A program made the translations under genes and the position numbers. From an uncultured Candidatus Saccharibacteria bacterium (lineage in GTDB: Bacteria; Patescibacteriota; Minisyncoccia; Phycocordibacterales; UBA9973): DNA of 64,000 bases. Where the stretch lies: positions 20,967 through 84,966 of the forward strand of contig CAZSFP010000003.1 in NCBI GenBank assembly GCA_964606285.1, given 5' to 3'. Below the pieces are notes generated by a model that saw nothing but the letters and a program-made list of their open reading frames with translations, was not told the origin of the DNA and ran no database searches. This document shows, one piece after another, positions 4,004-53,695 of this stretch (the stretch's first letter is position 1; each line of letters starts with the position of its first letter).

Positions 4004-5743
4004 ATGAATTTGGATTTTATCCTTTATACTAAAGGGTATATGGCGACATTCCAAGAAGACGATCAAATCAAAAAACTCGAAGAGCTCCGTGAACAAGAAG
4101 AGGAAGACCTCGTTCGGATTCTCGCTGAAACCCGGTATCATCTCCCCTACGTGAATCTTGCAAGTATTATCATCGACAATGAAGCACTTTCTTATTTGAC
4201 CGAAGCCGAGGCACGGTCACTCGAAGTTGGACCATTCAAAGTATCTGGTAAACATATCTATGTCGGTGTTCGTTCACCAAATCACGAAGGTTTGCCGGCA
4301 CTTCGCGATACACTTATTCGCAAAGGGTTGATTCCAACGTTCTACATGGTCTCACAAAAAAGTTTGAACAAAGTTTGGGAACGGTACACAGAACTTTCTC
4401 ATGCGACAGAATCACGTATCGGTGGTTTCGACATCGAAGGCGATCGTATGAAAGAACTCGGCGAGAAAATTGTCCGTTTTCAAGACGTTCAGAAAAATAT
4501 TTCTGATTGTATTCGTGAAAACAAACCTCACAAGATTTCACAAATTCTCGAAATCATTCTCGCGGGCGGCATATCACTCGATGCATCTGATGTGCACATC
4601 GAACCAGAAGAAACCGATATTCGTATCCGCTATCGTCTCGACGGTGTACTCCAAGACGTCGCGAGTCTCGATATCGGACTCAACCACTTGATCAACGCTC
4701 GACTAAAACTCCTCGCAGGTATGAAGCTCACGAACAGCGCAATGGCACAGGATGGCCGCATCAGTATTTTCCTCGATGACATGGAGATCAGTCTTCGTGT
4801 CTCGACTGTCCCGGGAACATACGGCGAATCCATCGTCATGCGTATTTTGAATCCCAAAAAAATCCGTATTCAACCTGAGGAACTCGGTATTGATCCTGAA
4901 TTATTCAAAATCATCGATAAAGAAATCAGAAAACCAAATGGCATGATCCTCATCACTGGTCCGACAGGATCTGGAAAAACGACGACATTGTATGCATTCT
5001 TGCAGCGCATCTACACACCGGAAGTCAAAGTCATCACCATCGAAGACCCAATCGAATATCACTTGAAGGGCATCACCCAGACACAGACAGAAAAAGAAAA
5101 AGGATATGGATTCCTCCAAGGCTTGCGTGCAGCACTCCGTCAAGACCCTGACATCATCATGGTCGGTGAAATCCGCGATGCCGAAACCGCACAAATCGCT
5201 GTCGAATCTGCACTCACTGGTCACATTGTCTTTTCAACGCTTCACACCAACAATGCTGGTGGTGTCATCCCTCGTATGATCGATCTCGAAGTCAATCCAA
5301 AAATTCTCGTCTCTGCACTTTCGCTCTCTATGGCACAACGTACCGTTCGTCGCCTCTGTCAGCACTGCAAAGTATCATATACACCAACCGAGTACGAAGA
5401 ATCAATATTACGAAATATTTTAAGAATGGCTGATGCAAACAAGAAAGGTATTGAGCGGTACAAACTCACACCTGACATGCCGATCACACTCTACAAACCT
5501 GTCGGCTGTGACCTCTGTCATGGTATCGGATATAAAGGATTGATCGGTATCTTTGAAGCGATTCTCACCGATGAGGCAATCGAAAAAATAATCCCGACAA
5601 ATCCCTCTGAACGTGAAATCAAAAAAGTTGCCAAAGCGCAAGGGATATTTGATATGCGCGAAGACGGCGCGGTAAAAATTCTCTCCGGTATCACATCTTT
5701 TGAAGAAGTTCGAAGTGTCGTGGATCTCGAAGAGGAAATTTAG
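4004..5743 (+). CDS. pilB: Type IV pilus assembly / type II secretion ATPase (PilB/GspE family)
   Basis: Walker A GPTGSGKTTT, conserved VGEIRD, Asp/His boxes and tetracysteine (CQHC...CDLC) typical of GspE/PilB; 579 aa. An alternative start at 4040 (MATFQ..., RBS-like AAAGGG upstream) is possible. Confidence 0.85.
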   Translation: MNLDFILYTKGYMATFQEDDQIKKLEELREQEEEDLVRILAETRYHLPYVNLASIIIDNEALSYLTEAEARSLEVGPFKVSGKHIYVGVRSPNHEGLPALRDTLIRKGLIPTFYMVSQKSLNKVWERYTELSHATESRIGGFDIEGDRMKELGEKIVRFQDVQKNISDCIRENKPHKISQILEIILAGGISLDASDVHIEPEETDIRIRYRLDGVLQDVASLDIGLNHLINARLKLLAGMKLTNSAMAQDGRISIFLDDMEISLRVSTVPGTYGESIVMRILNPKKIRIQPEELGIDPELFKIIDKEIRKPNGMILITGPTGSGKTTTLYAFLQRIYTPEVKVITIEDPIEYHLKGITQTQTEKEKGYGFLQGLRAALRQDPDIIMVGEIRDAETAQIAVESALTGHIVFSTLHTNNAGGVIPRMIDLEVNPKILVSALSLSMAQRTVRRLCQHCKVSYTPTEYEESILRNILRMADANKKGIERYKLTPDMPITLYKPVGCDLCHGIGYKGLIGIFEAILTDEAIEKIIPTNPSEREIKKVAKAQGIFDMREDGAVKILSGITSFEEVRSVVDLEEEI

Positions 5744-33713: not shown

Positions 33714-35063
33714 ATGTTTGATACAAAACAATTGTGGGATAAAACTTTGGAGTATTTACAACTAGAAGTCTCAAAGGCTAATTTCACGACATGGTTGAAA
33801 AATACTCATATAACAAAGGAAGAGGGAGGGATAGTCTACGTCGGTGTACCAAATGAATTTGTGAAGGAGTGGCTCATCACAAAATACAATAAAATCATCA
33901 CAAAAACCCTCATTGATCTCTCTGACCAGATTCGTGGTGTTGAATATGTCATCACAAAACTTGAATCGAAACCTAAAGATCAAATCTTGAGTGATAAACT
34001 CTTTAATATAAAGGAACTTCCACTTCAGGATCTCTATAACATCAATAAAGATGATAATTTGAACCCCCGATATACATTTGAAACGTTTATCGTCGGTACA
34101 TTCAATGAGTTGGCATATGCAGCAGGGAAATCTATCGTTGCAAAGCCGGGAATTTCTTATAATCCCTTCTTTGTCTATGGTGGTACCGGCCTCGGCAAGA
34201 CTCATCTCCTTCAAGCTATGGGAAATGAAGTCAAAAAGAACTTTCCAGATAAAAAAGTCCATTATATTACCTTGGAAAAGTTTGCAACTGATCTTGTTAA
34301 TTCATTTCAGACCAATAAAGCCAACTCTTTCAAAGAAAAATACCGAAAATATGACATGTTGATCATTGATGATATTCAATTTATAGGCAAAATGGAGAGA
34401 ACCCAAGAAGAACTCTTCCACACATTCAATACATTCTTCCAAAATAACAAAGCAATCATATTTTCATCTGACAAGCACCCAAACCATATTCCAGGACTCG
34501 AAGATCGTCTCCGAACACGCTTTGGACAGGGAATGATCGTTGATATTACTGAACCAGACTATGAATCCCGTCTTGCTATCCTCCAGAGAAAGATCACAGA
34601 GAACAATATTCACCTCAATACCGACGTTGTCAGCTATATTGCAGATGTCGTCGAAGGAAGTATTCGAGAACTTGAAGGTGCCCTCAATACCATCCTCTGT
34701 CACATTCAGCTCAAACAGCGTCAAATCAACCTCCAGGAAACGAAACTTCTCCTAAAGAACAGTATTAAACCAAAGAAAACCATACCTATAGAAGAAGTGG
34801 TTAATATCATCACTCAATTCTATAACCTTGAAAAAGATGCTATTTACGAGAAGACTCGACGGAAAGAAATTGTTAAAGCCCGACAAATCACCATGTTTCT
34901 CCTTCGTGAAGACTTCAGTATCTCGTATCCGATGATTGGTCAGCGTCTCGGCGGCAAAGATCACACAACTGTCATTCACTCCCATATGAAGATCAAGAAT
35001 GATGTGAAAACAAATCCAGCAATCAAAGAAGAAATAGAGCAGATTCGGATGATGTTCAAATGA
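33714..35063 (+). CDS. dnaA: Chromosomal replication initiator DnaA
   Basis: GGTGLGKTHLLQAMGNE Walker A, IIDDIQFI, sensor motifs and the C-terminal DNA-binding domain (RQITMFLLRE...GGKDHTTVIHS). Confidence 0.95.
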   Translation: MFDTKQLWDKTLEYLQLEVSKANFTTWLKNTHITKEEGGIVYVGVPNEFVKEWLITKYNKIITKTLIDLSDQIRGVEYVITKLESKPKDQILSDKLFNIKELPLQDLYNINKDDNLNPRYTFETFIVGTFNELAYAAGKSIVAKPGISYNPFFVYGGTGLGKTHLLQAMGNEVKKNFPDKKVHYITLEKFATDLVNSFQTNKANSFKEKYRKYDMLIIDDIQFIGKMERTQEELFHTFNTFFQNNKAIIFSSDKHPNHIPGLEDRLRTRFGQGMIVDITEPDYESRLAILQRKITENNIHLNTDVVSYIADVVEGSIRELEGALNTILCHIQLKQRQINLQETKLLLKNSIKPKKTIPIEEVVNIITQFYNLEKDAIYEKTRRKEIVKARQITMFLLREDFSISYPMIGQRLGGKDHTTVIHSHMKIKNDVKTNPAIKEEIEQIRMMFK

Positions 35064-35294
35064 TGGGGAAAAGATGTGAGTAAACTGGGAATAAAAAGTG
35101 GATTATACACAGAGGTTATCAAAAGATAGAAAAAGTTATCAAACGTTATCCGGAAATTAAGAGAAAAATAAACAGAGAGTGGGGAAAATAAAGATTGAAA
35201 TATATAGATATAGTGACCTTATCCACATATTAACAGCCCTAATAGTAATAATAAGTATATATATAATAAATAGATATATACTGTAGATAACATT
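35064..35294 (+). promoter_or_regulatory. dnaA-dnaN intergenic region with a DnaA box (ccttatccacat ~35216-35227), weaker boxes and an AT-rich unwinding-element-like tract. Likely the second part of a bipartite origin
   Basis: The motif and a >85% AT tract at 35225-35294 are seen directly. Confidence 0.5.
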
Positions 35295-36389
35295 ATGATA
35301 CTCGAATGCTCAACTGAAAAACTCAAACAAGCTCTCGGATATGCAGAACGCATGACTGGGAAGAACTTGTCTTTACCGATTCTTGGATCATTGTTATTTA
35401 TTGCATCAGGAAAGACACTTCGAATCCGAGCAACCAATCTTTCTCTTGGTATTGAAATAGAAGTTCCAGCAAAGATCGAACAAGAAGGGGTTATTGCTGT
35501 GAAGGCAGATACGGTCAGTGCAGCAGTTCATTCGTTTGTTTCAAATGATATGGTTACTCTCTCGCTCGACAATAGTAATCTTCTTCTGAAGACAAAACAG
35601 AATAAAGTGCTCGTGAAAGCATTCTCACATGAAGACTTCCCAACGCTTCCAGTGGTTGCAGGTCAGGAAATATACCTTTCAGCAAAAAAACTCATTGACG
35701 GGCTCAAATCAGTCGTTTACAGCGCATCTGTGTCCGATATCAAACCGGAGCTTGCGAGTGTGTATGTCTATCCATCCGATGGGCAGATCTTTTTTGTTGC
35801 AACAGATGCATTTCGATTGGCAGAAAAGAAAGTAAAGGGTGGGGAAGGGGAATGGAAAGGAATATTGATCCCGGCAAAGAATGCACTTGAAGTCATAAAA
35901 CTGTTTCAAGACTATGGTGATGATATAAAAATAATCATCAGTGACAATCAGCTCTCATTTACAACGAGTATGATGTATGTGACATCACGACTCGTCGCAA
36001 ATCCGTTTCCTGACTATACCCAGATTCTTCCAAAGGAACCAAAAACACAGGTGACTGTCCTTAAGCAGGATCTCGTAAATGCATTGAAATTGACTACTGT
36101 TTTTTCTGATAAGTTCAATCAAGTAAATATCAGTGTTGTTGGTGCTGAGAAAAAAATGGCGATCGGTGCCAAGAACGCGGATACAGGGGAACAGATTACA
36201 AAGGTTGATGCGGCAATTTCTGGGGATGATATAGAAATGAATGTGAACTATCGCCATATGATGGATTGTTTCCAGTCGATTGGACAGGATAGTATCACAC
36301 TGTCATTTACGGATACGAACCGACCAATAGTAATTCGTGGGGTGTCTGATCAATCATTCCTTTATTTAATAATGCCAATGAACAGATAA
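35295..36389 (+). CDS. dnaN: DNA polymerase III beta sliding clamp
   Basis: 364 aa, three-domain length, typical N-terminus (MILECSTEKLKQAL...), position immediately after dnaA. Confidence 0.85.
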   Translation: MILECSTEKLKQALGYAERMTGKNLSLPILGSLLFIASGKTLRIRATNLSLGIEIEVPAKIEQEGVIAVKADTVSAAVHSFVSNDMVTLSLDNSNLLLKTKQNKVLVKAFSHEDFPTLPVVAGQEIYLSAKKLIDGLKSVVYSASVSDIKPELASVYVYPSDGQIFFVATDAFRLAEKKVKGGEGEWKGILIPAKNALEVIKLFQDYGDDIKIIISDNQLSFTTSMMYVTSRLVANPFPDYTQILPKEPKTQVTVLKQDLVNALKLTTVFSDKFNQVNISVVGAEKKMAIGAKNADTGEQITKVDAAISGDDIEMNVNYRHMMDCFQSIGQDSITLSFTDTNRPIVIRGVSDQSFLYLIMPMNR

Positions 36390-42818: not shown

Positions 42819-44012
42819 ATGTTCAAAAAACTCTTTATTTTCATAGGTTGTATCGCACTCCTCTTTAGTGTTGCCAAGGTTTCTCATGCAGCACAGGTGA
42901 CCGGCTACGCATGGTCAGGAAATATCGGATGGATCAATATGTCTGGTGTGACGATCAATGACCAAACTGGTGCATTTTCCGGTTATGCATGGTCACCGAA
43001 TATCGGATGGATCAATTTTGGATTGACTGGAGTTACTATGGCGGGAGGAACAAATCCCGGCATTCATGCAGTTACCGGTTTTGCCCGTGCATGCACACCG
43101 GCCACCACAGGTCCTGGATCAGGACAATTTTGTAACGACACAGGTAACAGTACCGGATATGGTTCACCAACCAGTGATACCAATACCAACGGGTGGGGAG
43201 GATGGATCAGTATGAGTGGTTCAAATCCAACCTATGGCGTTTCTATAAACATTAACTCATCTGGTCTCGGGACATTTTCTGGATATGCTTGGGGTGACGA
43301 TGTGATTGGTTGGATAAATTTTGCAACAGCAGCACCTATAACTGCACAATTCCCTACAAGTACTATTGGTTGTATGGATCCAATGGCAACAAACTACAAT
43401 CCAAACGCAACGACACCAGGGATGTGTGCTTATGATATTCTAGGCTGTACCAACCCTATAGCAACAAACTACAACCCACAAGCAACAGTTGATGATGGTT
43501 CATGTATCCTTCCTCAAAATTCATCAACGGTTCTTCTCGGAAATGGTCTACCGAATGCTGTAACAGTTTGTGAGGATAAGTTCAATTTTAGTCTTACATG
43601 GCAAAGCCAAAACGTCTCTTCGTGTGTTGTCGGCTCAGGAAACACAGGCCCGTGGCCACCGACGTATAGCAGTACTGTCGGATCAAATGTGACACCGACA
43701 ACAGTTCTCTCTGGTCCGTACTATACGGTCAATCCTGGTGTCTATACTTATGCGATGTCATGTGTTCCGACAGCCACAAGCGCACTCATCCTCACCGTGC
43801 TTCCAAAGACCGATCCAATGTGTGCGCCACCGATTACAGGTTGTATGGATCCAAACGCGACAAACTATAATCCACTAGCAACAATTGCGAATAATGCGCT
43901 CTGTACATATCCAAACAATGTCTGTCCCGCATCAGCACTGAATGCCGGTCAAGCGCCGCCATGTCAGTATCCACAAGGCCCTGGAGGACGTCCGATCTAT
44001 ATTGAAAACTAA
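42819..44012 (+). CDS. Secreted repeat protein: 3x GYAWSxNIGWINF repeats followed by 3x Cys-bounded CxDPxATNYNPxAT...C repeats
   Basis: Signal peptide MFKKLFIFIGCIALLFSVAKVSHA; repeats read directly in the ORF. Confidence 0.55.
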   Translation: MFKKLFIFIGCIALLFSVAKVSHAAQVTGYAWSGNIGWINMSGVTINDQTGAFSGYAWSPNIGWINFGLTGVTMAGGTNPGIHAVTGFARACTPATTGPGSGQFCNDTGNSTGYGSPTSDTNTNGWGGWISMSGSNPTYGVSININSSGLGTFSGYAWGDDVIGWINFATAAPITAQFPTSTIGCMDPMATNYNPNATTPGMCAYDILGCTNPIATNYNPQATVDDGSCILPQNSSTVLLGNGLPNAVTVCEDKFNFSLTWQSQNVSSCVVGSGNTGPWPPTYSSTVGSNVTPTTVLSGPYYTVNPGVYTYAMSCVPTATSALILTVLPKTDPMCAPPITGCMDPNATNYNPLATIANNALCTYPNNVCPASALNAGQAPPCQYPQGPGGRPIYIEN

Positions 44013-44034
44013 TTATCAGCTATACTACAAACAT

Positions 44035-45768
44035 ATGAAACACATCACATCACAATTGAAAGTCACGGTAAAAGTTCTTACGATCGCAATCGTCCTTTTG
44101 CTTGGTACACACATTGCACGTGCAGCAGTCTCTCCGCAGTTCAATCCGCCGACAGGTGCTCCATCCGCAGGAACAAATGTGTATCCTCCAATTCATGAGG
44201 GTGCACAAGCTCAGACAAAGAATGGCGACCTTACTATTGGTATCGGAAACTTTCTCGGTGGAAAAACAATCAAAGGTGACTTTGTGAAAGGTGTGTGGGC
44301 GATGCTTGCGCCAATGATTATTTCAAGTGATGCGAACGGATTTGTTTCAAGTCCAAAATATTGTCTTCCGACACCAGCGCAAACAACAGCCGCAGATTAT
44401 GCACAAAACTGTATTACTACATGGCCAACGGGAGGTAACTTGCCTGCAGGTCAAAACAACCAAACACTTCGACACAATGGTACAACATGGGTTGCAAGCG
44501 ATGCAATCAAAAATATCGTCACACCTGTTCCGTCTGTCCAAATTCTTTTGAACGGCAAAGGTATTGTCGTAAACGGTAACAATGGCGGAACACAAATCGT
44601 TGACGGTACTGCTCCTACGACACAACCACAGTTTCTAACTCGATCGTCGCTGAACGGTGGCTATGCAACATGGGGCCCTGGTTTACCTATGGGAACAATA
44701 AATCAAACAATGCGTCATGATGGAACAAATTGGCTTGCTGACTCTCTTTTGAAAAACAATGGAACAAATCTTGTGAATATTAGTGATCCAGCTTCACCAA
44801 TTCCACCAATTAACCCACCCGTTCCAACTCTTTTGGTTAGTGGTAATGTTGTTGCATTTGATGTTCCGCCGTCAAACTCAAACCCACCAATCACTGGATA
44901 TAGATATGTTAAAGAAATGACGAACACAAGTCCTGTTGTTCAAATAACTGGGTCAAATGATACTCCAGAACTCATAAATTATTGGCAAAATCTTGGTCAG
45001 GGAGGATTTTTCTTGGGAGTAACGGGTCCTGTCAATACCGCCCTTCAGGCGGCACGAATCAGTGGTCCTTGTACTGATGCAACATATGGTGAAACCATTC
45101 CTGCTGGACAAAACTATACACTTGCTCAGACACTCAACTGTAATGATGCTTCATATACTATTACAAACTCTCAGGATACTCGACCGTACGTCTATGAACT
45201 CTACTCTCAGAGAACTGTTCATTCAGGTAGTAATGGATATGTGGAATATATTTTTAAAGCAAATCGATATAAAAGGGAAGCAATATACGGCCAAACACCA
45301 ACGTCTACAGGAGGAACACTTTTTGCTGTTCATGGACAATTTAGTGATCTCAATAGTTCAGCCCCTCTTTCACAAAGTAGTAATGGTGTTTGTTCTGACG
45401 CAAACGGAAAATTGATCCGATGTGCGATTGAAATACCTCAACCAGAACCTCTTGATATCAAGTATGTTCGTCATTCCTGGAGTGATATAAGTTCAAATTC
45501 TTCCAGATATGTATTTTGTCCAAGCTCATACAAGGCAATTGCGGCAAGTTGTGACACTGAAAAAGGAACGCAAGTATGTCAGGTGTACCCTGCTGTAGAT
45601 GGAGAGTTCGGTGTCGGAAGTTGGCCGGTGACAGCAAGTAATGCGTCATTTGCTACAGGAACAGCATGGTCTTCTAGCGGGGTCTATACAGGACGATCGG
45701 GTGGAGAAGTGCAGTGTGATCAAGATAATTGCGATGTCCACATTCAAATTACCTGCGTGATGCCATAA
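44035..45768 (+). CDS. Large secreted Gly/Thr/Asn-rich protein with a Cys-rich C-terminus
   Basis: Start set at MKHITSQLKVTVKVLTIAIVLLLGTHIARA (signal peptide); 577 aa. Confidence 0.5.
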   Translation: MKHITSQLKVTVKVLTIAIVLLLGTHIARAAVSPQFNPPTGAPSAGTNVYPPIHEGAQAQTKNGDLTIGIGNFLGGKTIKGDFVKGVWAMLAPMIISSDANGFVSSPKYCLPTPAQTTAADYAQNCITTWPTGGNLPAGQNNQTLRHNGTTWVASDAIKNIVTPVPSVQILLNGKGIVVNGNNGGTQIVDGTAPTTQPQFLTRSSLNGGYATWGPGLPMGTINQTMRHDGTNWLADSLLKNNGTNLVNISDPASPIPPINPPVPTLLVSGNVVAFDVPPSNSNPPITGYRYVKEMTNTSPVVQITGSNDTPELINYWQNLGQGGFFLGVTGPVNTALQAARISGPCTDATYGETIPAGQNYTLAQTLNCNDASYTITNSQDTRPYVYELYSQRTVHSGSNGYVEYIFKANRYKREAIYGQTPTSTGGTLFAVHGQFSDLNSSAPLSQSSNGVCSDANGKLIRCAIEIPQPEPLDIKYVRHSWSDISSNSSRYVFCPSSYKAIAASCDTEKGTQVCQVYPAVDGEFGVGSWPVTASNASFATGTAWSSSGVYTGRSGGEVQCDQDNCDVHIQITCVMP

Positions 45769-45895: not shown

Positions 45896-46516
45896 ATGAA
45901 AAAGTTTCTTTTAGCAGTATGTGTGATATTCACCATCTCTTTTTTCCCTCAAAATATTTTTGCTCAAAACCAAAATCCTATTGTTGAGGATATGACTGAT
46001 TATCCCAGCAATAACGATGTATCTTTTACAGTAGTTCTTGATGAAGCTACTGAAATGCCGACAGTTGTAACGGTAAAACATGCAACTGAACAATTGCCAA
46101 GCCCACTGGAATTGGTTGATTCTGTTTTTACCATCACCTCTCCGTTTTTTAATTTTACCATTGATGGTTTAAACGCAGGTAATTATTATTGCACATCTCT
46201 TTCATTTCAAAATGCGACAGGTCAACCGCTCCCGTATCAGTATTGTTTCTGGACGACCGAATCATCTGTTGGTGTTCAGGAAAACACTGCTGTTGAATTG
46301 AATATATATCCTAATCCTGCAAACGACCTGTTGTTTGTGCAATCAGAAATTGACAGTAAGATTTCTATTGCCGATATCCTTGGAAAGAATATTTTTCACA
46401 GGCAATCAAAAGAAATTGTTGAACGTATTGATATCAGAAACCTCCCTATGGGAGCATATTTTGTTACCGTAGAAAATACTCACGGCAAAACAATAAAAAA
46501 AGTACTTGTTCAATAA
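45896..46516 (+). CDS. Secreted protein ending in a T9SS-type (Por secretion) C-terminal sorting domain
   Basis: Signal peptide; the C-terminal ~75 aa (LNIYPNPANDLLFVQSEID...ILGKNIF...IDIRNLPMGAYFVTVENTHGKTIKKVLVQ) match the conserved CTD pattern. Confidence 0.6.
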   Translation: MKKFLLAVCVIFTISFFPQNIFAQNQNPIVEDMTDYPSNNDVSFTVVLDEATEMPTVVTVKHATEQLPSPLELVDSVFTITSPFFNFTIDGLNAGNYYCTSLSFQNATGQPLPYQYCFWTTESSVGVQENTAVELNIYPNPANDLLFVQSEIDSKISIADILGKNIFHRQSKEIVERIDIRNLPMGAYFVTVENTHGKTIKKVLVQ

Positions 46517-46574: not shown

Positions 46575-47003
46575 TTATTTATCTAATACATCCAAACTCC
46601 AGGCGATGTCGCGAATGCGGGATTCGGAGAATTTCTTTTCATGCGTTTGGGCTTTTTGGATTTCCTCGACTTTTGGTTGTTCCTTGAGGGATTTGTTTTT
46701 TGGTTGTTTCCAGATAAAGAGTTTTCTTTGGAAAATATAGGTGAACCACGCTTCAACGATAAAAATAAACGGTTTTTCATTGACGCGATAGAACGTCAGG
46801 GCGATGGCAAAGGCAATGAGACCGAGCGCGAGGGGAATACCGAGAAATCCCGGCAGGATCCGATAGAGAATGTACGCGCCGCCTGCGCCGCCTGCGAGAT
46901 AGACGAATTGTCGAAACGTGAATGGTCCGAAAATCTTGTCTTCGACGTCGATGAATTGAGGAACGCGAAATTGCATATGAATAGTATAGCAGGTGAAAAA
47001 CAC
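46575..47003 (-). CDS. Small two-TM membrane protein, divergent from the VirB4 operon (possibly VirB3-like)
   Basis: 142 aa with hydrophobic hairpin GGAGGAYILYRILPGFLGIPLALGLIAFAIALTF. The assignment is by context only. Confidence 0.35.
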   Translation of the reverse strand: MFFTCYTIHMQFRVPQFIDVEDKIFGPFTFRQFVYLAGGAGGAYILYRILPGFLGIPLALGLIAFAIALTFYRVNEKPFIFIVEAWFTYIFQRKLFIWKQPKNKSLKEQPKVEEIQKAQTHEKKFSESRIRDIAWSLDVLDK

Positions 47004-47010
47004 GATACCA

Positions 47011-47090
47011 ACTAGTACAGTAGTACGAGTACGTAGTATGTAGTATAAATTCCTAATACTTTGTACTATGTACTCATACTAAGTACTATT
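47011..47090 (+). repeat. GTAC-rich conserved intergenic element, copy 1 (upstream of the VirB4 operon)
   Basis: tagtacgagtacgtagtat ... atactttgtactatgtactcatactaagtact; aligns with 50484-50550 and partly with 33080-33150. Confidence 0.6.
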
Positions 47091-47151
47091 TTTTTTGACT
47101 ATCCACTACAACCTATAACCTATTACACTATTTTTCTGTTATACTTTTTGC

Positions 47152-47793
47152 ATGGCACTCTCCGCACAACGGACGCAAGATTTCGTTCCGATCAAAGAAG
47201 TGCGTGACGGCATCGTCGTGCTCAAAGACGGCGGTCTGCGCGCCATCGTCATGGGTTCATCGGTGAATTTGTCTCTCAAATCGTACGAAGAACAAAAGGC
47301 GACCATCATGCAATTCCAAGCGTTCCTCAACACGCTTGATTTTAGTACGCAAATTGTTGTTCAGTCTCGCCGTCTCGACATCCGTCCATACCTCCTCCTC
47401 CTCGAGGGTGAAATGGCGAAACAGGCAGAACCGCTTCTCAAAGTTCAGACCCGCGAATATATGGAATTCATTAAACAATTCAATGAAGAGGTCAACATCA
47501 TGACTAAACATTTTTTTATTGTTGTTCCATACAGTGAAGAAGCACTTCAATCAAGCGGTGCAGGGTCTGGGTTTTCATTGTCGTCCATATTTGGTGGCAA
47601 GGATGAAAGCAAGAAACAAATGCAAGCGAATTTTGAAGAAAAGCGCAATCAGCTCGAGCAGCGCATCGCAGTCATTCAACAAGGTCTCGGTCGTGTCGGG
47701 GTCAAATCCGAACAATTGACTACAGAGGCGGTGATCGAACTGTTTTACAAGACATTTAATCCTGGCGACAGTCAGGCGTCGGTCGGAAAATAA
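47152..47793 (+). CDS. N-terminal ~210-aa segment of a VirB4/TrbE-family ATPase, encoded as a separate ORF
   Basis: QDFVPIKEVRDGIVVLKDGGLRAIVMGSSVNLSLKSYEEQ... resembles the first conserved block of VirB4/CagE/TrbE N-termini. The stop lies 1 nt before the next ORF's start, in a different frame. Confidence 0.55.
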   Translation: MALSAQRTQDFVPIKEVRDGIVVLKDGGLRAIVMGSSVNLSLKSYEEQKATIMQFQAFLNTLDFSTQIVVQSRRLDIRPYLLLLEGEMAKQAEPLLKVQTREYMEFIKQFNEEVNIMTKHFFIVVPYSEEALQSSGAGSGFSLSSIFGGKDESKKQMQANFEEKRNQLEQRIAVIQQGLGRVGVKSEQLTTEAVIELFYKTFNPGDSQASVGK

Positions 47794-47794
47794 T

Positions 47795-49885
47795 ATGTCA
47801 TTCATTTCAGATTTTTTTTCAAAAAAGAAAACCCCTGCGCAAACCGATACGCACGCAGTACTGCCGGTGCTGCCGGCTGAAATTTATGAGCAGGCAACGC
47901 TCGAGCTTCAGGATGTCATCGCGCCATCAGCACTTGAAATCTCTCCGAAAAATTTGCACCTCGGCGACAAGATCGCTCGGACATTTTTCGTCATCGCATA
48001 TCCGCGCTTTTTGACCGACAACTGGTTCTCACCTATCATCAATCTCGACAAGATTTTTGATGTCTCTATTTTCATTCACCCGATTGAGACGAGTGAGATT
48101 CTCCATACATTTCAAAAAAAAGTCGCAGAAGTCCAGAGTCAGATCAATGTTCGTGAGAGTAAAGGTCTCGTTCGCGATCCGATGCTCGATACCGCGTATC
48201 GTGATCTCGAATCGCTCCGCGACAATCTCATGCAGGCGCAGGAGAAAATGTTTGAAGTCGGACTCTATATCACTATCTATGCCGACAATGACATAGAACT
48301 ATTCAAGGTTGAAACAGAAGTCAAAACAATTCTCGAATCACGCATGGTCTACATCAAGCCGGCGTTGTTCCAGCAAAAAGAAGGATTCATGAGTATGATT
48401 CCGACTGGCATGGACCTCATCAATGTCCACCAGAAACTCAACTCTGAACCACTCTCGTCTATTTTCCCATTCGTGTCATTTGACCTCACGAGTGAGAAGG
48501 GGATTCTCTATGGAGTAAATCGTCACAATTCGAGTCTTGTTATCTTTGACCGCTACTCACTCGAGAACTATAACTCTGTGCTCTTTGCAACATCTGGCGC
48601 AGGTAAGTCATTTGCGACAAAATTGGAAATTCTCCGAACACTCATGTTTGGTACGAGTGTTATTGTTATTGATCCAGAAAATGAATACAAATACCTTGCC
48701 GAAGCGGTTGGTGGACGCTATTTCAATATTTCACTTTCGTCCGATCACCATATCAATCCGTTCGATTTACCGATCCCACGCGAAGACGAAACTGCTGCTG
48801 ATGTCCTTCGTTCAAATACGATCAATCTCGTCGGACTTTTCCGTGTGATGTTGGGTGGGCTGACACCGGCAGAAGACTCAATCATCGATCAGGCGATTAC
48901 GGAAACCTATGCGATCAAAGATATCAGTCCCGAATCTGATTTTTCAAACATTGAGCCGCCACTATTGTCTGACTTTGAAATGGTACTTGCGGGCATGGAC
49001 GGTACCGAATCGATTATCGCTCGGCTCACTCGCTATACCAAGGGTACATGGGCACGATTCTTGAACCAAGCGTCGAACGTCAACATCGACAAAAACATGG
49101 TGGTTTTCTCTATTCGCGACATGGAAGACGAATTGAAACCAGTGGCGATGTATATCGTGACGCATTATATCTGGAATGAAATCCGCAAGAATTTGAAAAA
49201 GCGTCTCCTTGTTGTCGATGAGGCATGGATCATGATGAAAACTGAAGATACGGCGTCATTCCTCTTTGGTATTGCAAAGCGTGGCCGAAAATACTTTCTC
49301 GGTCTCGCGACGATCACACAGAACGTCGATGACTTTATGGGATCAAAATATGGTGTGGCTATCGTGACGAATGCGTCGATCGCACTGCTCCTCAAACAAT
49401 CTCCGAGTAATATTGCCTTGGTTCAAAAAACATTCAACCTGACAGATGAAGAAAAATATCTTCTCCTCGAATCTGGTGTTGGGGAAGGTATTTTCTTTGC
49501 CGGACTCAAACACGTTGCGATCAAAGTCATCGCTTCATATACTGAACAACAAATCATTACTTCAGATCCGTCACAACTCCTCGCGATCAAGGCCGCCAAG
49601 GATGAACTTGCGCAGTCTGAACAAGGTATAAATGAAGGATCACCGCTCAATGTTGGACAAGACATCATACAACAAGAGAAAGATGCACAAAAAATAGAAA
49701 CAACGTCAACACCTGTATCACCGGCACAAGAGCAATCACCAGAAGTTCAAGAAATTCCTGTAGAAAAAGAAACACCAGTAATTCCGGAAGTGCAATCTGG
49801 GGCAATCACGATAGATGATGATGCATCTGCTCGCTTGATCGAAGAATTACGCGCGCTTGAAAGTGATTTTGGTGGTAAGATATAA
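47795..49885 (+). CDS. VirB4/TrbE/ConE-family type IV secretion ATPase (main body)
   Basis: N-proximal block ALEISPKNLHLGDKIARTFFVIAYP, Walker A LFATSGAGKSFATK, Walker B LLVVDEAW and an acidic/Pro-rich C-terminal tail. Confidence 0.8.
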   Translation: MSFISDFFSKKKTPAQTDTHAVLPVLPAEIYEQATLELQDVIAPSALEISPKNLHLGDKIARTFFVIAYPRFLTDNWFSPIINLDKIFDVSIFIHPIETSEILHTFQKKVAEVQSQINVRESKGLVRDPMLDTAYRDLESLRDNLMQAQEKMFEVGLYITIYADNDIELFKVETEVKTILESRMVYIKPALFQQKEGFMSMIPTGMDLINVHQKLNSEPLSSIFPFVSFDLTSEKGILYGVNRHNSSLVIFDRYSLENYNSVLFATSGAGKSFATKLEILRTLMFGTSVIVIDPENEYKYLAEAVGGRYFNISLSSDHHINPFDLPIPREDETAADVLRSNTINLVGLFRVMLGGLTPAEDSIIDQAITETYAIKDISPESDFSNIEPPLLSDFEMVLAGMDGTESIIARLTRYTKGTWARFLNQASNVNIDKNMVVFSIRDMEDELKPVAMYIVTHYIWNEIRKNLKKRLLVVDEAWIMMKTEDTASFLFGIAKRGRKYFLGLATITQNVDDFMGSKYGVAIVTNASIALLLKQSPSNIALVQKTFNLTDEEKYLLLESGVGEGIFFAGLKHVAIKVIASYTEQQIITSDPSQLLAIKAAKDELAQSEQGINEGSPLNVGQDIIQQEKDAQKIETTSTPVSPAQEQSPEVQEIPVEKETPVIPEVQSGAITIDDDASARLIEELRALESDFGGKI

Positions 49886-51574: not shown

Positions 51575-53695
51575 ATGAAATATTTTTTCCTCTCACTTTG
51601 CATACTTCTCGGATCATTCTTTGTTTCATCTGAACAGGTTTTTGCTGTGATAAACCTCAATCCGGCAACAACAACGGTTAGTATGAGTATCAATTCACTC
51701 AATACTCAAAACGGAACTATTGGATTCAAGGCGCATGTCATGAATACGGGTATTATACCAAGCACACCAACGTACAGTGTTATCAATACTCTCAGTGTCA
51801 ATAATAGTGGGGTTGCGAGTACATCTTTTTCTGGTTTGGTTGCCGGTGGCTCGTATCTCGTTCAAATCAAATCATATCCTTTGTCTGATCCAACTGATTT
51901 GTCTCTTGATCAAGAAAAACCATTTCAAACACAAGCACAGTCTCCAACGTTAACATCTCTTTCTGTTACTAGTGGCAATCAAGGACAAGTAATGACCGTC
52001 AACATGACGGGAACAAATTTTGTAAACGGGGCGACAGCAAACTTTGGTGCCAATATCAGCAACACGATAACATTTGTCAGCCCAACTCTTTTGAAGGCAG
52101 ATATTATCATAGCGAACAATGCGAGTGCTGGACCAAGAAGCGTAACAGTCACGAGCGGGGGAAACACAACAGCGCCAAAAACATTTACTGTTGTAGCAAA
52201 TCAGGGGACGGCATTTTCTATCGTTGGTGCATCACCAGTTTTTACAGCAGAACCAAATGATCCCAGCTTGGCACATGTCACTATGACCGTGACATTCAAC
52301 GGTGATCCGATGTCTGCCCCAGCAGCAGGTATCACGCTCGTGACAAGTACTGACAATCCTGCGACAGTGAATACTGTATACAATGGACCTGTCACAGGAA
52401 GTGCACAAACAGTTACCGGTAACTCATATGCAGTTGAACTTTCAAACGTGCCACTCAATACGACATATTCATATATCATAAAGAATGCAACGACAGGCGC
52501 GACTATGTATGGCCCAAAGACATTTACTGCCAGCCTCAATACGACACCACCACCGACGGATGCATGTCCAAATGAACCTGGGGTGCAACCAACAGGACCG
52601 TGTAATAACATGGAAAATGATGTTTGTACCAATGAACCTGGGATTCAGCCACCAGGAACACAGTGTCAAACAGTGTTATATACACTTCTCGAGCCGATCA
52701 TGGGCGTGACGGCGATCAACACAGCATCTGACCTTGCGACATTTTTCAACTTTCTTTTTAAGATGCTCATCGGACTCTGTAGTTTGCTTGCGGTTATCAT
52801 GATTATCATCGGCGGTATCGAATATCTCACAACCGAAGCGTTCACAGGCAAGAGCAATGCTCGCGATCGCATCGAAAATGCCGTAACTGGTCTTGTGCTC
52901 CTTGCGGCAATTTATCTTATTCTCTATACGATCAACCCAAATTTGTTGCGATTGAATATCGATTTGAAGGCGATTGAAACGCATATAGATGGTGTCACTC
53001 TTTCTGATGTTCAGTTTATTTCTGACGCTCAGTTTTCTAGTATTACAGGACATAGTCCTATTGCACCTGCGGCATTGGAAGGAGTGATAAATTCAGTTGC
53101 TCAATCGTACAGTATTGATGCATGTGCGATAAAGGCGATTATTGAAAAAGAATCAAACTTTAGAGTTGGTGCAATAGGTCATGATGAAAATGCCGGTCTA
53201 TCAAATCCGGCTTCGCGAACGAAGAGTGCAAAAGCATTTGTTGCGTCGCTCAAAAAATATACCGGAACAGTATTTACAACAAGCACTATTCCCTCGAGAA
53301 ACGATGATGAAACAAATGATCACAATGTTCTCGATCCAAACAGCCCCGGACTCGGCCTTGATTGGCGTTTTAGTCATGGTATAGGTCTCATGCAGGTCAC
53401 ATTTTTTCCACCTGCATATCAAGTAGATGGTTATACGACAAATCCACCTGCGTGGAGTACGAGAAACACGCACCCAACAAGAAACGGGCAGACACCAAAA
53501 CAAATGATGACAGAAGCAACAAACATCTCAAATGGTGCGTTGATCTACAAGAATTTTTTAACAAGCGATGCTTGTGGCAATGATCCATTGAAAGCATTTT
53601 CTGCTTATAATGCAGGAACAGTCGGGTGTACGACACCGACAGCATATGGTCAGATAGTTTTTGCCAACTACACTGCCTGCATGAACGGACAATAA
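51575..53695 (+). CDS. Multi-domain envelope protein: signal peptide, Ig-like surface repeats, hydrophobic helical hairpin, and a C-terminal lytic-transglycosylase (SLT/VirB1-like) domain
   Basis: TM pair (LLAVIMIIIGGIEYLT ... GLVLLAAIYLILYTI). SLT motifs AIIEKESNF (catalytic Glu-Ser) and GLMQV in the C-terminal ~200 aa. Confidence 0.65.
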   Translation: MKYFFLSLCILLGSFFVSSEQVFAVINLNPATTTVSMSINSLNTQNGTIGFKAHVMNTGIIPSTPTYSVINTLSVNNSGVASTSFSGLVAGGSYLVQIKSYPLSDPTDLSLDQEKPFQTQAQSPTLTSLSVTSGNQGQVMTVNMTGTNFVNGATANFGANISNTITFVSPTLLKADIIIANNASAGPRSVTVTSGGNTTAPKTFTVVANQGTAFSIVGASPVFTAEPNDPSLAHVTMTVTFNGDPMSAPAAGITLVTSTDNPATVNTVYNGPVTGSAQTVTGNSYAVELSNVPLNTTYSYIIKNATTGATMYGPKTFTASLNTTPPPTDACPNEPGVQPTGPCNNMENDVCTNEPGIQPPGTQCQTVLYTLLEPIMGVTAINTASDLATFFNFLFKMLIGLCSLLAVIMIIIGGIEYLTTEAFTGKSNARDRIENAVTGLVLLAAIYLILYTINPNLLRLNIDLKAIETHIDGVTLSDVQFISDAQFSSITGHSPIAPAALEGVINSVAQSYSIDACAIKAIIEKESNFRVGAIGHDENAGLSNPASRTKSAKAFVASLKKYTGTVFTTSTIPSRNDDETNDHNVLDPNSPGLGLDWRFSHGIGLMQVTFFPPAYQVDGYTTNPPAWSTRNTHPTRNGQTPKQMMTEATNISNGALIYKNFLTSDACGNDPLKAFSAYNAGTVGCTTPTAYGQIVFANYTACMNGQ

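Follow-up and report, generated by a model that had tools for sequence, protein, structure and literature searches.

Is a VirB4 homologue that lies in two reading frames, one nucleotide (nt) apart, a broken gene or an intact pair of genes? This question is raised by positions 47,152 to 49,885 of a 64,000-nt stretch of DNA (hereafter the window) from an uncultured Candidatus Saccharibacteria bacterium (Patescibacteriota; Minisyncoccia; GenBank assembly GCA_964606285.1, contig CAZSFP010000003.1, positions 20,967 to 84,966 of the forward strand). A preliminary description, made from the letters alone, had placed there an open reading frame (ORF) of 213 amino acids (aa), ORF1, followed by one of 696 aa, ORF2. 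It had left the choice between a genuine split gene, a frameshift pseudogene, a programmed frameshift and an assembly error. The comparisons presented here make it very probable that the locus is a genuine, ancient and conserved two-gene VirB4, made up of a TrsD-like protein and a VirB4 body, and carries no lesion. For the type IV secretion systems (T4SS) of Patescibacteria, such a split is normal and has been published; the small gene there goes by the name of TrsD homologue (Quinonero-Coronel et al. 2025, Microb Genom, PMC12102498). In the sense of that study ORF1 is TrsD-like, and the window locus is a typical example of this already known arrangement.

Two reading frames that together cover one VirB4

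The coordinates of both ORFs and of their 1-nt junction proved exact, with ORF2 in the +1 frame relative to ORF1. The features of the locus are as follows, all of them on the forward strand:

47152-47793 (+): ORF1, 213 aa, TrsD-like protein, read as the detached VirB4 N-terminal module; stop codon TAA at 47791-47793
47152-47532 (+): ORF1 conserved block 1, residues 1-127 (homologue alignment A1; CD1110 profile positions 2-126; residues 136-249 of the Embleya PrgI-fused protein described below)
47533-47631 (+): ORF1 linker, residues 128-160, variable in sequence and length in A1; predicted local distance difference test score (pLDDT) below 50 at residues 130-149
47632-47766 (+): ORF1 conserved block 2, residues 161-205 (FEEKRNQLEQR...ELFYKTFNPG), from A1; profile-aligned continuously with ORF2 when the two are concatenated
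47791-47797 (+): junction TAA-T-ATG, comprising the ORF1 stop, a 1-nt spacer (T at 47794) and the ORF2 start
47795-49885 (+): ORF2, 696 aa, VirB4 body, read as the rest of the N-terminal domain plus the C-terminal RecA-like ATPase
47795-47830 (+): ORF2 conserved N-terminal motif MSFISDFFSKKK, conserved across orthologous loci
48587-48613 (+): Walker A ATSGAGKSF (GAGKS is ORF2 residues 268-272), aligned to the P-loop of 4AG5
49205-49228 (+): Walker B LLVVDEAW, ORF2 residues 471-478, aligned to 4AG5
49589-49882 (+): E/Q/P-rich low-complexity C-terminal tail of ORF2, ~98 aa, residues 599-696, missing from most orthologues

The two proteins matched consecutive parts of full-length VirB4 profiles of NCBIfam. 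Residues 9-132 of ORF1 aligned to positions 2-126 of the 752 positions of the CD1110-type VirB4 profile (expectation value, E, 1.2e-5), and residues 6-129 aligned to positions 102-236 of the 894 positions of the Mbov_0397 VirB4 profile (VirB4_plasma; E 1.4e-9). These matches, at the N-terminal parts of both profiles, bore out the earlier assignment of ORF1 to the conserved N-terminal block of VirB4. Meanwhile, residues 32-575 of ORF2 aligned to positions 181-733 of the CD1110 profile (NF045971; E 4.5e-109). The score of 365.8 bits passes the curated whole-protein cut-off of 325 bits, and both the Walker A and the Walker B motif are present (ATSGAGKS and LLVVDEAW). This is in agreement with the claim that ORF2 carries the next conserved block together with the ATPase. 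Searches with ORF2 also returned the Pfam families P-loop_TraG, AAA_10 and DUF87 and, among structures in the PDB, the VirB4 C-terminal domain 4AG5 (E 4e-41) and TrwK of R388 (7O41; E 1e-4).

Aligning both ORFs to full-length profiles had been proposed as a check on the split, and they do map to successive regions without overlap: ORF2 alone covers only 181-733 of the CD1110 profile, ORF1 supplies 2-126, and the profile is covered by the pair jointly. When the two proteins were concatenated, the score against NF045971 was 381.2 bits, and the alignment to Mbov_0397 ran across the junction (residues 162-801 on profile positions 235-893), indicating that a full-length VirB4 has block 2 of ORF1 next to the start of ORF2. 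Judged from these alignments, ORF1 is the counterpart of the first ~180-290 profile positions of a full-length VirB4, and ORF2 is a VirB4 with its ATPase that begins where ORF1 ends. A local Pfam scan of ORF1 returned no family, a null that should not be taken to mean that the protein lacks one; PF26593 (TraC-like) is listed in the precomputed annotation of a protein identical to ORF1. The sum of ~909 aa, which had been described as a canonical VirB4 length, stands as a total, but it includes the ~98-aa tail that most orthologues lack (ORF2 homologues typically have 603-628 aa, and a few have 682-723 aa), and a natural fusion of the two parts measures 797 aa.

The split is the common state among homologues

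A protein search with ORF1 returned more than 7,800 homologues, of which the best 120 were all free-standing proteins of 210-229 aa with PF26593, and all came from Patescibacteria (Nomurabacteria, Paceibacterota, Wolfebacteria and Minisyncoccia). When 1.8 billion representatives of clusters at 50% identity were searched with a profile, 3,164 clusters matched, and 149 of the 150 best representatives had 116-443 aa. In a one-genome-per-species scan, at least 553 species genomes encoded a relative of ORF1.

We fetched 80 orthologous loci for a comparison of the junction, 75 of which entered a stricter analysis. In 78 of the 80, the two homologues were separate genes, that of ORF1 closed by its own stop and that of ORF2 opened by its own ATG; contig ends cut the other two loci. 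Together with the free-standing homologues and the reproducible junction, this comparison speaks for the genuine split gene among the four options of the preliminary description. The spacer from stop to ATG measured 1-146 nt with a median of 7 (13 nt or less in 46 of the 75 loci), and the relative frames 0, +1 and +2 occurred in 17, 30 and 28 loci, respectively. Eight orthologous loci displayed the junction type of the window, that is a stop, one base and an ATG at a +1 offset.

Both ends of the break are conserved at the protein level. Homologues of ORF1 mostly end 8-12 aa past the conserved FNPG motif, with a few longer tails. The ORF2 family begins with the motif M-[GS]-[IFL]-[FL]-D-x-[LI]-[FL]-G-K-K. 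In most of the 75 loci this motif opens right at the first ATG, which indicates that 47795 is the genuine start of ORF2. Variants are few; for example, in one locus (L064) the motif begins 4 residues after the first ATG. Furthermore, two assemblies made independently from different sequencing runs both contain the same 213-aa gene, and their junction region was 100% identical to that of the window over 101 nt, homopolymers included. The comparisons show that both genes have a conserved stop or start of their own and that the pair is complementary, collinear and conserved.

Two features of the orthologous loci were observed alongside. In about a third of them the spacer is 34-146 nt long and contains a hairpin or a long inverted repeat that varies between lineages (loci L023, L058, L024, L060, L026, L031, L051, L077, L009, L055, L019 and L045, at about locus position 4640-4760). 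One such hairpin is ctaggcaagacctgacatgtcaggtcttgcctag, and another case displays 22-nt terminal inverted repeats, tcccgttagaagcc.../...gcttctaacggg. Such elements may serve as regulatory stem-loops between the cistrons or may be small palindromic insertions; none is present in the spacer of the window. In two loci (L030 and L071) the ORF2 homologue does not form a single long ORF, as the tblastn match is broken or no ORF exceeds 400 aa. Unlike the window, these two loci may represent real disruptions or assembly problems.

Natural fusions and the same split on plasmids

Of the 150 best cluster representatives, P0226 alone is a long protein; it is a natural in-frame fusion of a TrsD-like protein and VirB4. 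It has 797 aa and is encoded at positions 544-2937 of locus L086 (GCA_964615945.1, CAZTUR010000004.1). Its residues 1-210 share 37% identity with ORF1, and its residues 230-791 share 54% identity with residues 38-598 of ORF2. The fusion has a different linker and lacks the N-terminal motif of ORF2. It comes from a Patescibacteria-like metagenome-assembled genome in which PrgI lies upstream and yidC, rnpA and dnaA lie nearby. The possibility that the fusion is an artefact of TGA read as glycine was rejected, as the DNA reads CAA GGG ATG without a stop.

The split itself is also found on plasmids of Bacillota. A Pontibacillus plasmid encodes a 274-aa protein that aligns to residues 8-207 of ORF1, adjacent to a 621-aa VirB4 of the CD1110 family that aligns to residues 29-609 of ORF2; these alignments place the break point where it lies in the window. 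A Clostridium perfringens plasmid (L085) carries a PrgI family gene, a small protein and a DUF87 ATPase in this order, and a Peribacillus plasmid carries an unannotated small upstream protein, a second small protein and a DUF87 ATPase. The block takes other partners elsewhere. On an Embleya plasmid (Actinomycetota), a 349-aa protein combines a PrgI domain (residues 14-101) with a TrsD-like block (residues 136-249) that shares 31% identity with ORF1, and a 643-aa ATPase follows downstream with another gene between them. On a haloarchaeal plasmid (Haloplanus), a 552-aa protein begins with the block, which is fused to DUF7139, and precedes a DUF87 ATPase.

Lesion, recoding or a protein of its own

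The junction does have the look of damage. Two ORFs lie 1 nt apart in different frames, homopolymer runs (A4, T8 and A6) lie close to their junction, and one relative has a continuous gene of 797 aa, all of which would fit a recent frameshift, or a sequencing or assembly error, in a once-continuous virB4 of ~900 aa. We give such a lesion next to no chance. The break recurs in all 78 informative loci with spacers and frames that differ, which disposes of the pseudogene, and free-standing homologues of ORF1 number in the thousands. The start motif of ORF2 is conserved, and the continuous relative is joined by a different linker without that motif. As for an assembly error, the junction is identical in two independent assemblies and the same break occurs across the orthologues. 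A programmed +1 ribosomal frameshift or readthrough, which would yield a single VirB4 of 909 aa, could draw on the A-rich stretch ahead of the stop and on the frame of ORF2, which upstream of its ATG is open only from 47735 (60 nt, 47735-47794, overlapping the end of ORF1). Such recoding is exceedingly improbable, since the orthologues share neither a slippery site nor a frame relation (all three relative frames occur), their spacers, up to 146 nt long, include stops and hairpins, and conservation of the ATG and N-terminal motif of ORF2 marks a true start.

The main remaining rival holds that ORF1 descends from the VirB4 N-terminal domain and now acts as an independent accessory or regulatory protein, such as an assembly factor, an inhibitor or an adaptor for other partners, and is not a structural part of the ATPase. 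TrsD has no assigned function, and many homologues carry extra C-terminal extensions (up to ~440 aa). The Embleya block is fused to PrgI and separated from the ATPase by another gene, and that of Haloplanus is fused to DUF7139. The separation of TrsD homologues from virB4 reported in Gracilibacteria (PMC12102498) fits this rival and is also one of several observations that weigh against the two-gene VirB4 itself. Another is structural: for the AlphaFold2 model of ORF1 (mean pLDDT 73.5), 12 of the 16 best Foldseek matches in the PDB are chains of TrwK/VirB4 of R388, which favours the two-gene VirB4, but these matches are weak (E 0.04-0.2, TM-score 0.35-0.42, none at E 0.001 or lower), and a search of the ORF1 profile against PDB sequences gave chance matches only (E ~1). 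ORF1 also matches the NCBIfam TrsD/TraD family NF041427 over positions 15-142 of 201 at 28.4 bits (E 1.3e-6), with a curated cut-off of 200 bits; by this score it is a remote relative of that family, outside the narrowly defined subfamily. In addition, PrgI in the window is divergent from ORF1 and lies outside its operon. An independent accessory role is nevertheless unlikely, and we see only a small chance for it. It is disfavoured by complementarity, as ORF2 has no copy of the block of its own and the pair is not a duplication, and by the existence of a natural single-chain version (P0226). The tight adjacency of the two genes in most loci and the split point common to Bacillota plasmids also speak against it. 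A conserved VirB4 in two genes is hence the reading that we retain.

Relation to published secretion systems

The published survey of Patescibacteria treats TrsD as remotely homologous to the N-terminus of VirB4. No other T4SS component was found there as often; TrsD had 2,272 homologues, 1,664 of which adjoin virB4 (PMC12102498). The same study reports that the T4SS clusters of these bacteria are often near dnaA and that relaxases are mostly absent from them. According to Wang et al. 2023, as cited there, the TrsD homologue is among the essential genes of Southlakia epibionticum, and it is for this species that the literature reports a requirement for epibiotic growth. The main text of Guglielmini et al. 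2014 makes no mention of TrsD. The window locus agrees with the Patescibacteria systems in having a small homologue of the VirB4 N-terminus adjoining virB4, with PrgI/VirB3 nearby, in its chromosomal location near dnaA and in its closest homologues (Nomurabacteria, Paceibacterota and Minisyncoccia). Pilin-like and VirB1-like functions may be represented as well, by a nearby protein with borderline matches described below. The differences, a divergent PrgI and the extra tail of ORF2, are not essential.

The locus also resembles the TrsD/TraD and TrsE/TraE pairs of the staphylococcal plasmids pGO1/pSK41 (MPF_FATA; NF041427) and the other Bacillota plasmid pairs, which have the order of a PrgI-like protein, a small TrsD-like protein and a VirB4-like ATPase, and the same split point. 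These pairs, however, share only 25-32% identity with the window proteins and belong to plasmid conjugation machines, whereas the window locus is chromosomal. With the canonical single-chain VirB4 (TrwK of R388, 7O41/7O42; the CD1110 family; TraC of F), the pair shares the domain order and a homologous ATPase. It differs in that the chain is divided ~10-30 residues past FNPG, resulting in two genes and two products without a covalent link. Work cited in PMC12102498 indicates that VirB3-VirB4 fusion proteins exist in some conjugative systems. There the modules VirB3, VirB4 N-terminal block and VirB4 body occur in the same order, with break points that vary, and the Embleya protein is an intermediate form relative to them. 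In the window, on the other hand, the modules are three separate genes, with PrgI on the opposite strand.

Genomic neighbourhood

The genes around the pair include further candidate T4SS components and the replication genes:

33714-35063 and 35295-36389 (+; span 33714-36389): dnaA and dnaN, ~12 kb upstream of the T4SS cluster
46575-47003 (-): PrgI family (VirB3-like) small membrane protein (Pfam PF12666, E 4.7e-12, 46.7 bits against a cut-off of 27)
51575-53695 (+): 706-aa protein with a T4SS-pilin-like hydrophobic segment (residues 387-452) and an SLT (VirB1-like) lytic transglycosylase segment (residues 505-544)

The position of dnaA and dnaN places the T4SS cluster near the replication origin, and the cluster is flanked by tyrS, a penicillin-binding protein (PBP) gene and yidC. 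The true start of the PrgI family gene is probably the ATG at 46976 (MQFRVPQF...), and the 148-nt divergent intergenic region between it and ORF1 (47004-47151) is the probable site of both promoters. PrgI is co-directional with the TrsD-like and VirB4 genes, and directly upstream of them, in L086 and on the C. perfringens plasmid. Both matches of the 706-aa protein are borderline: PF18895 scored 24.7 bits, below its cut-off of 26.6, and PF01464 scored 21.8 bits with a cut-off of 21.3.

Genes for secreted proteins were also observed. Two large predicted ones, of 397 and 608 aa (42819-45768, forward strand), lie between tyrS and the T4SS genes and had no Pfam match, and the first of the two displays repeated GYAWS-NIGWINF motifs; both proteins may be surface or pilus-associated. 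The third, a secreted protein of 206 aa (45896-46516, forward strand), carries a clear Por_Secre_tail domain (E 3e-15), the C-terminal sorting domain of the type IX secretion system (T9SS). This domain is unexpected in a genome of Patescibacteria because the T9SS C-terminal sorting signal is typical of Bacteroidota.

Proposed mechanism and implications

Based on these findings, we postulate how a VirB4 encoded by two genes could work. A scan for promoters and terminators between the ORFs found no terminator and a single promoter-like match (9/12, 47765-47794) that was not above chance; hence, ORF1 and ORF2 would be co-transcribed. Their translation may be coupled through the short TAA-T-ATG spacer, and the purine run GGAAAA at 47785-47790 is a possible, weak ribosome-binding site. 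Most likely, the two polypeptides would then associate non-covalently and rebuild a complete VirB4 ATPase. The TrsD-like piece would form its membrane-proximal part and dock on PrgI/VirB3. Such a contact is suggested by the fusion of PrgI and the TrsD-like block in Embleya, by the published VirB3-VirB4 fusions and by the published account that VirB3 anchors VirB4 to the inner membrane (PMC12102498). The rebuilt VirB4 would anchor and energise a chromosomal, origin-proximal T4SS that is reportedly needed for the epibiotic life of Patescibacteria.

The VirB4 N-terminal block is found in several states. It stands free in Patescibacteria and on plasmids of Bacillota, is joined to PrgI/VirB3 in Actinomycetota and to other domains in haloarchaea, and is part of the VirB4 chain in the canonical proteins and, rarely, in Patescibacteria. 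One may speculate that the block is an evolutionarily mobile, dissociable adaptor and not a fixed part of the ATPase, an idea that we put forward tentatively and regard as rather doubtful. If it were true, a separate block might control the timing and the ratio of ATPase recruitment to the membrane, and this ratio could be tuned by the lineage-specific hairpins that about a third of the trsD-virB4 spacers contain.

For genome annotation, our findings imply that neighbouring genes of this kind should be labelled neither a disrupted virB4 nor a pseudogene, as they represent a normal pair of trsD-like and virB4 genes. They also add to the published description of these systems. The VirB4 of Patescibacteria lacks exactly the block that TrsD supplies, a point that is not explicit in PMC12102498; the split point is common to Bacillota plasmids; and natural fusions of the block to VirB4 and to PrgI exist. 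The T4SS of Patescibacteria is reported to be essential for their epibiotic lifestyle. Collectively, these additions may give TrsD a testable role within it, as the VirB3-docking part of VirB4.

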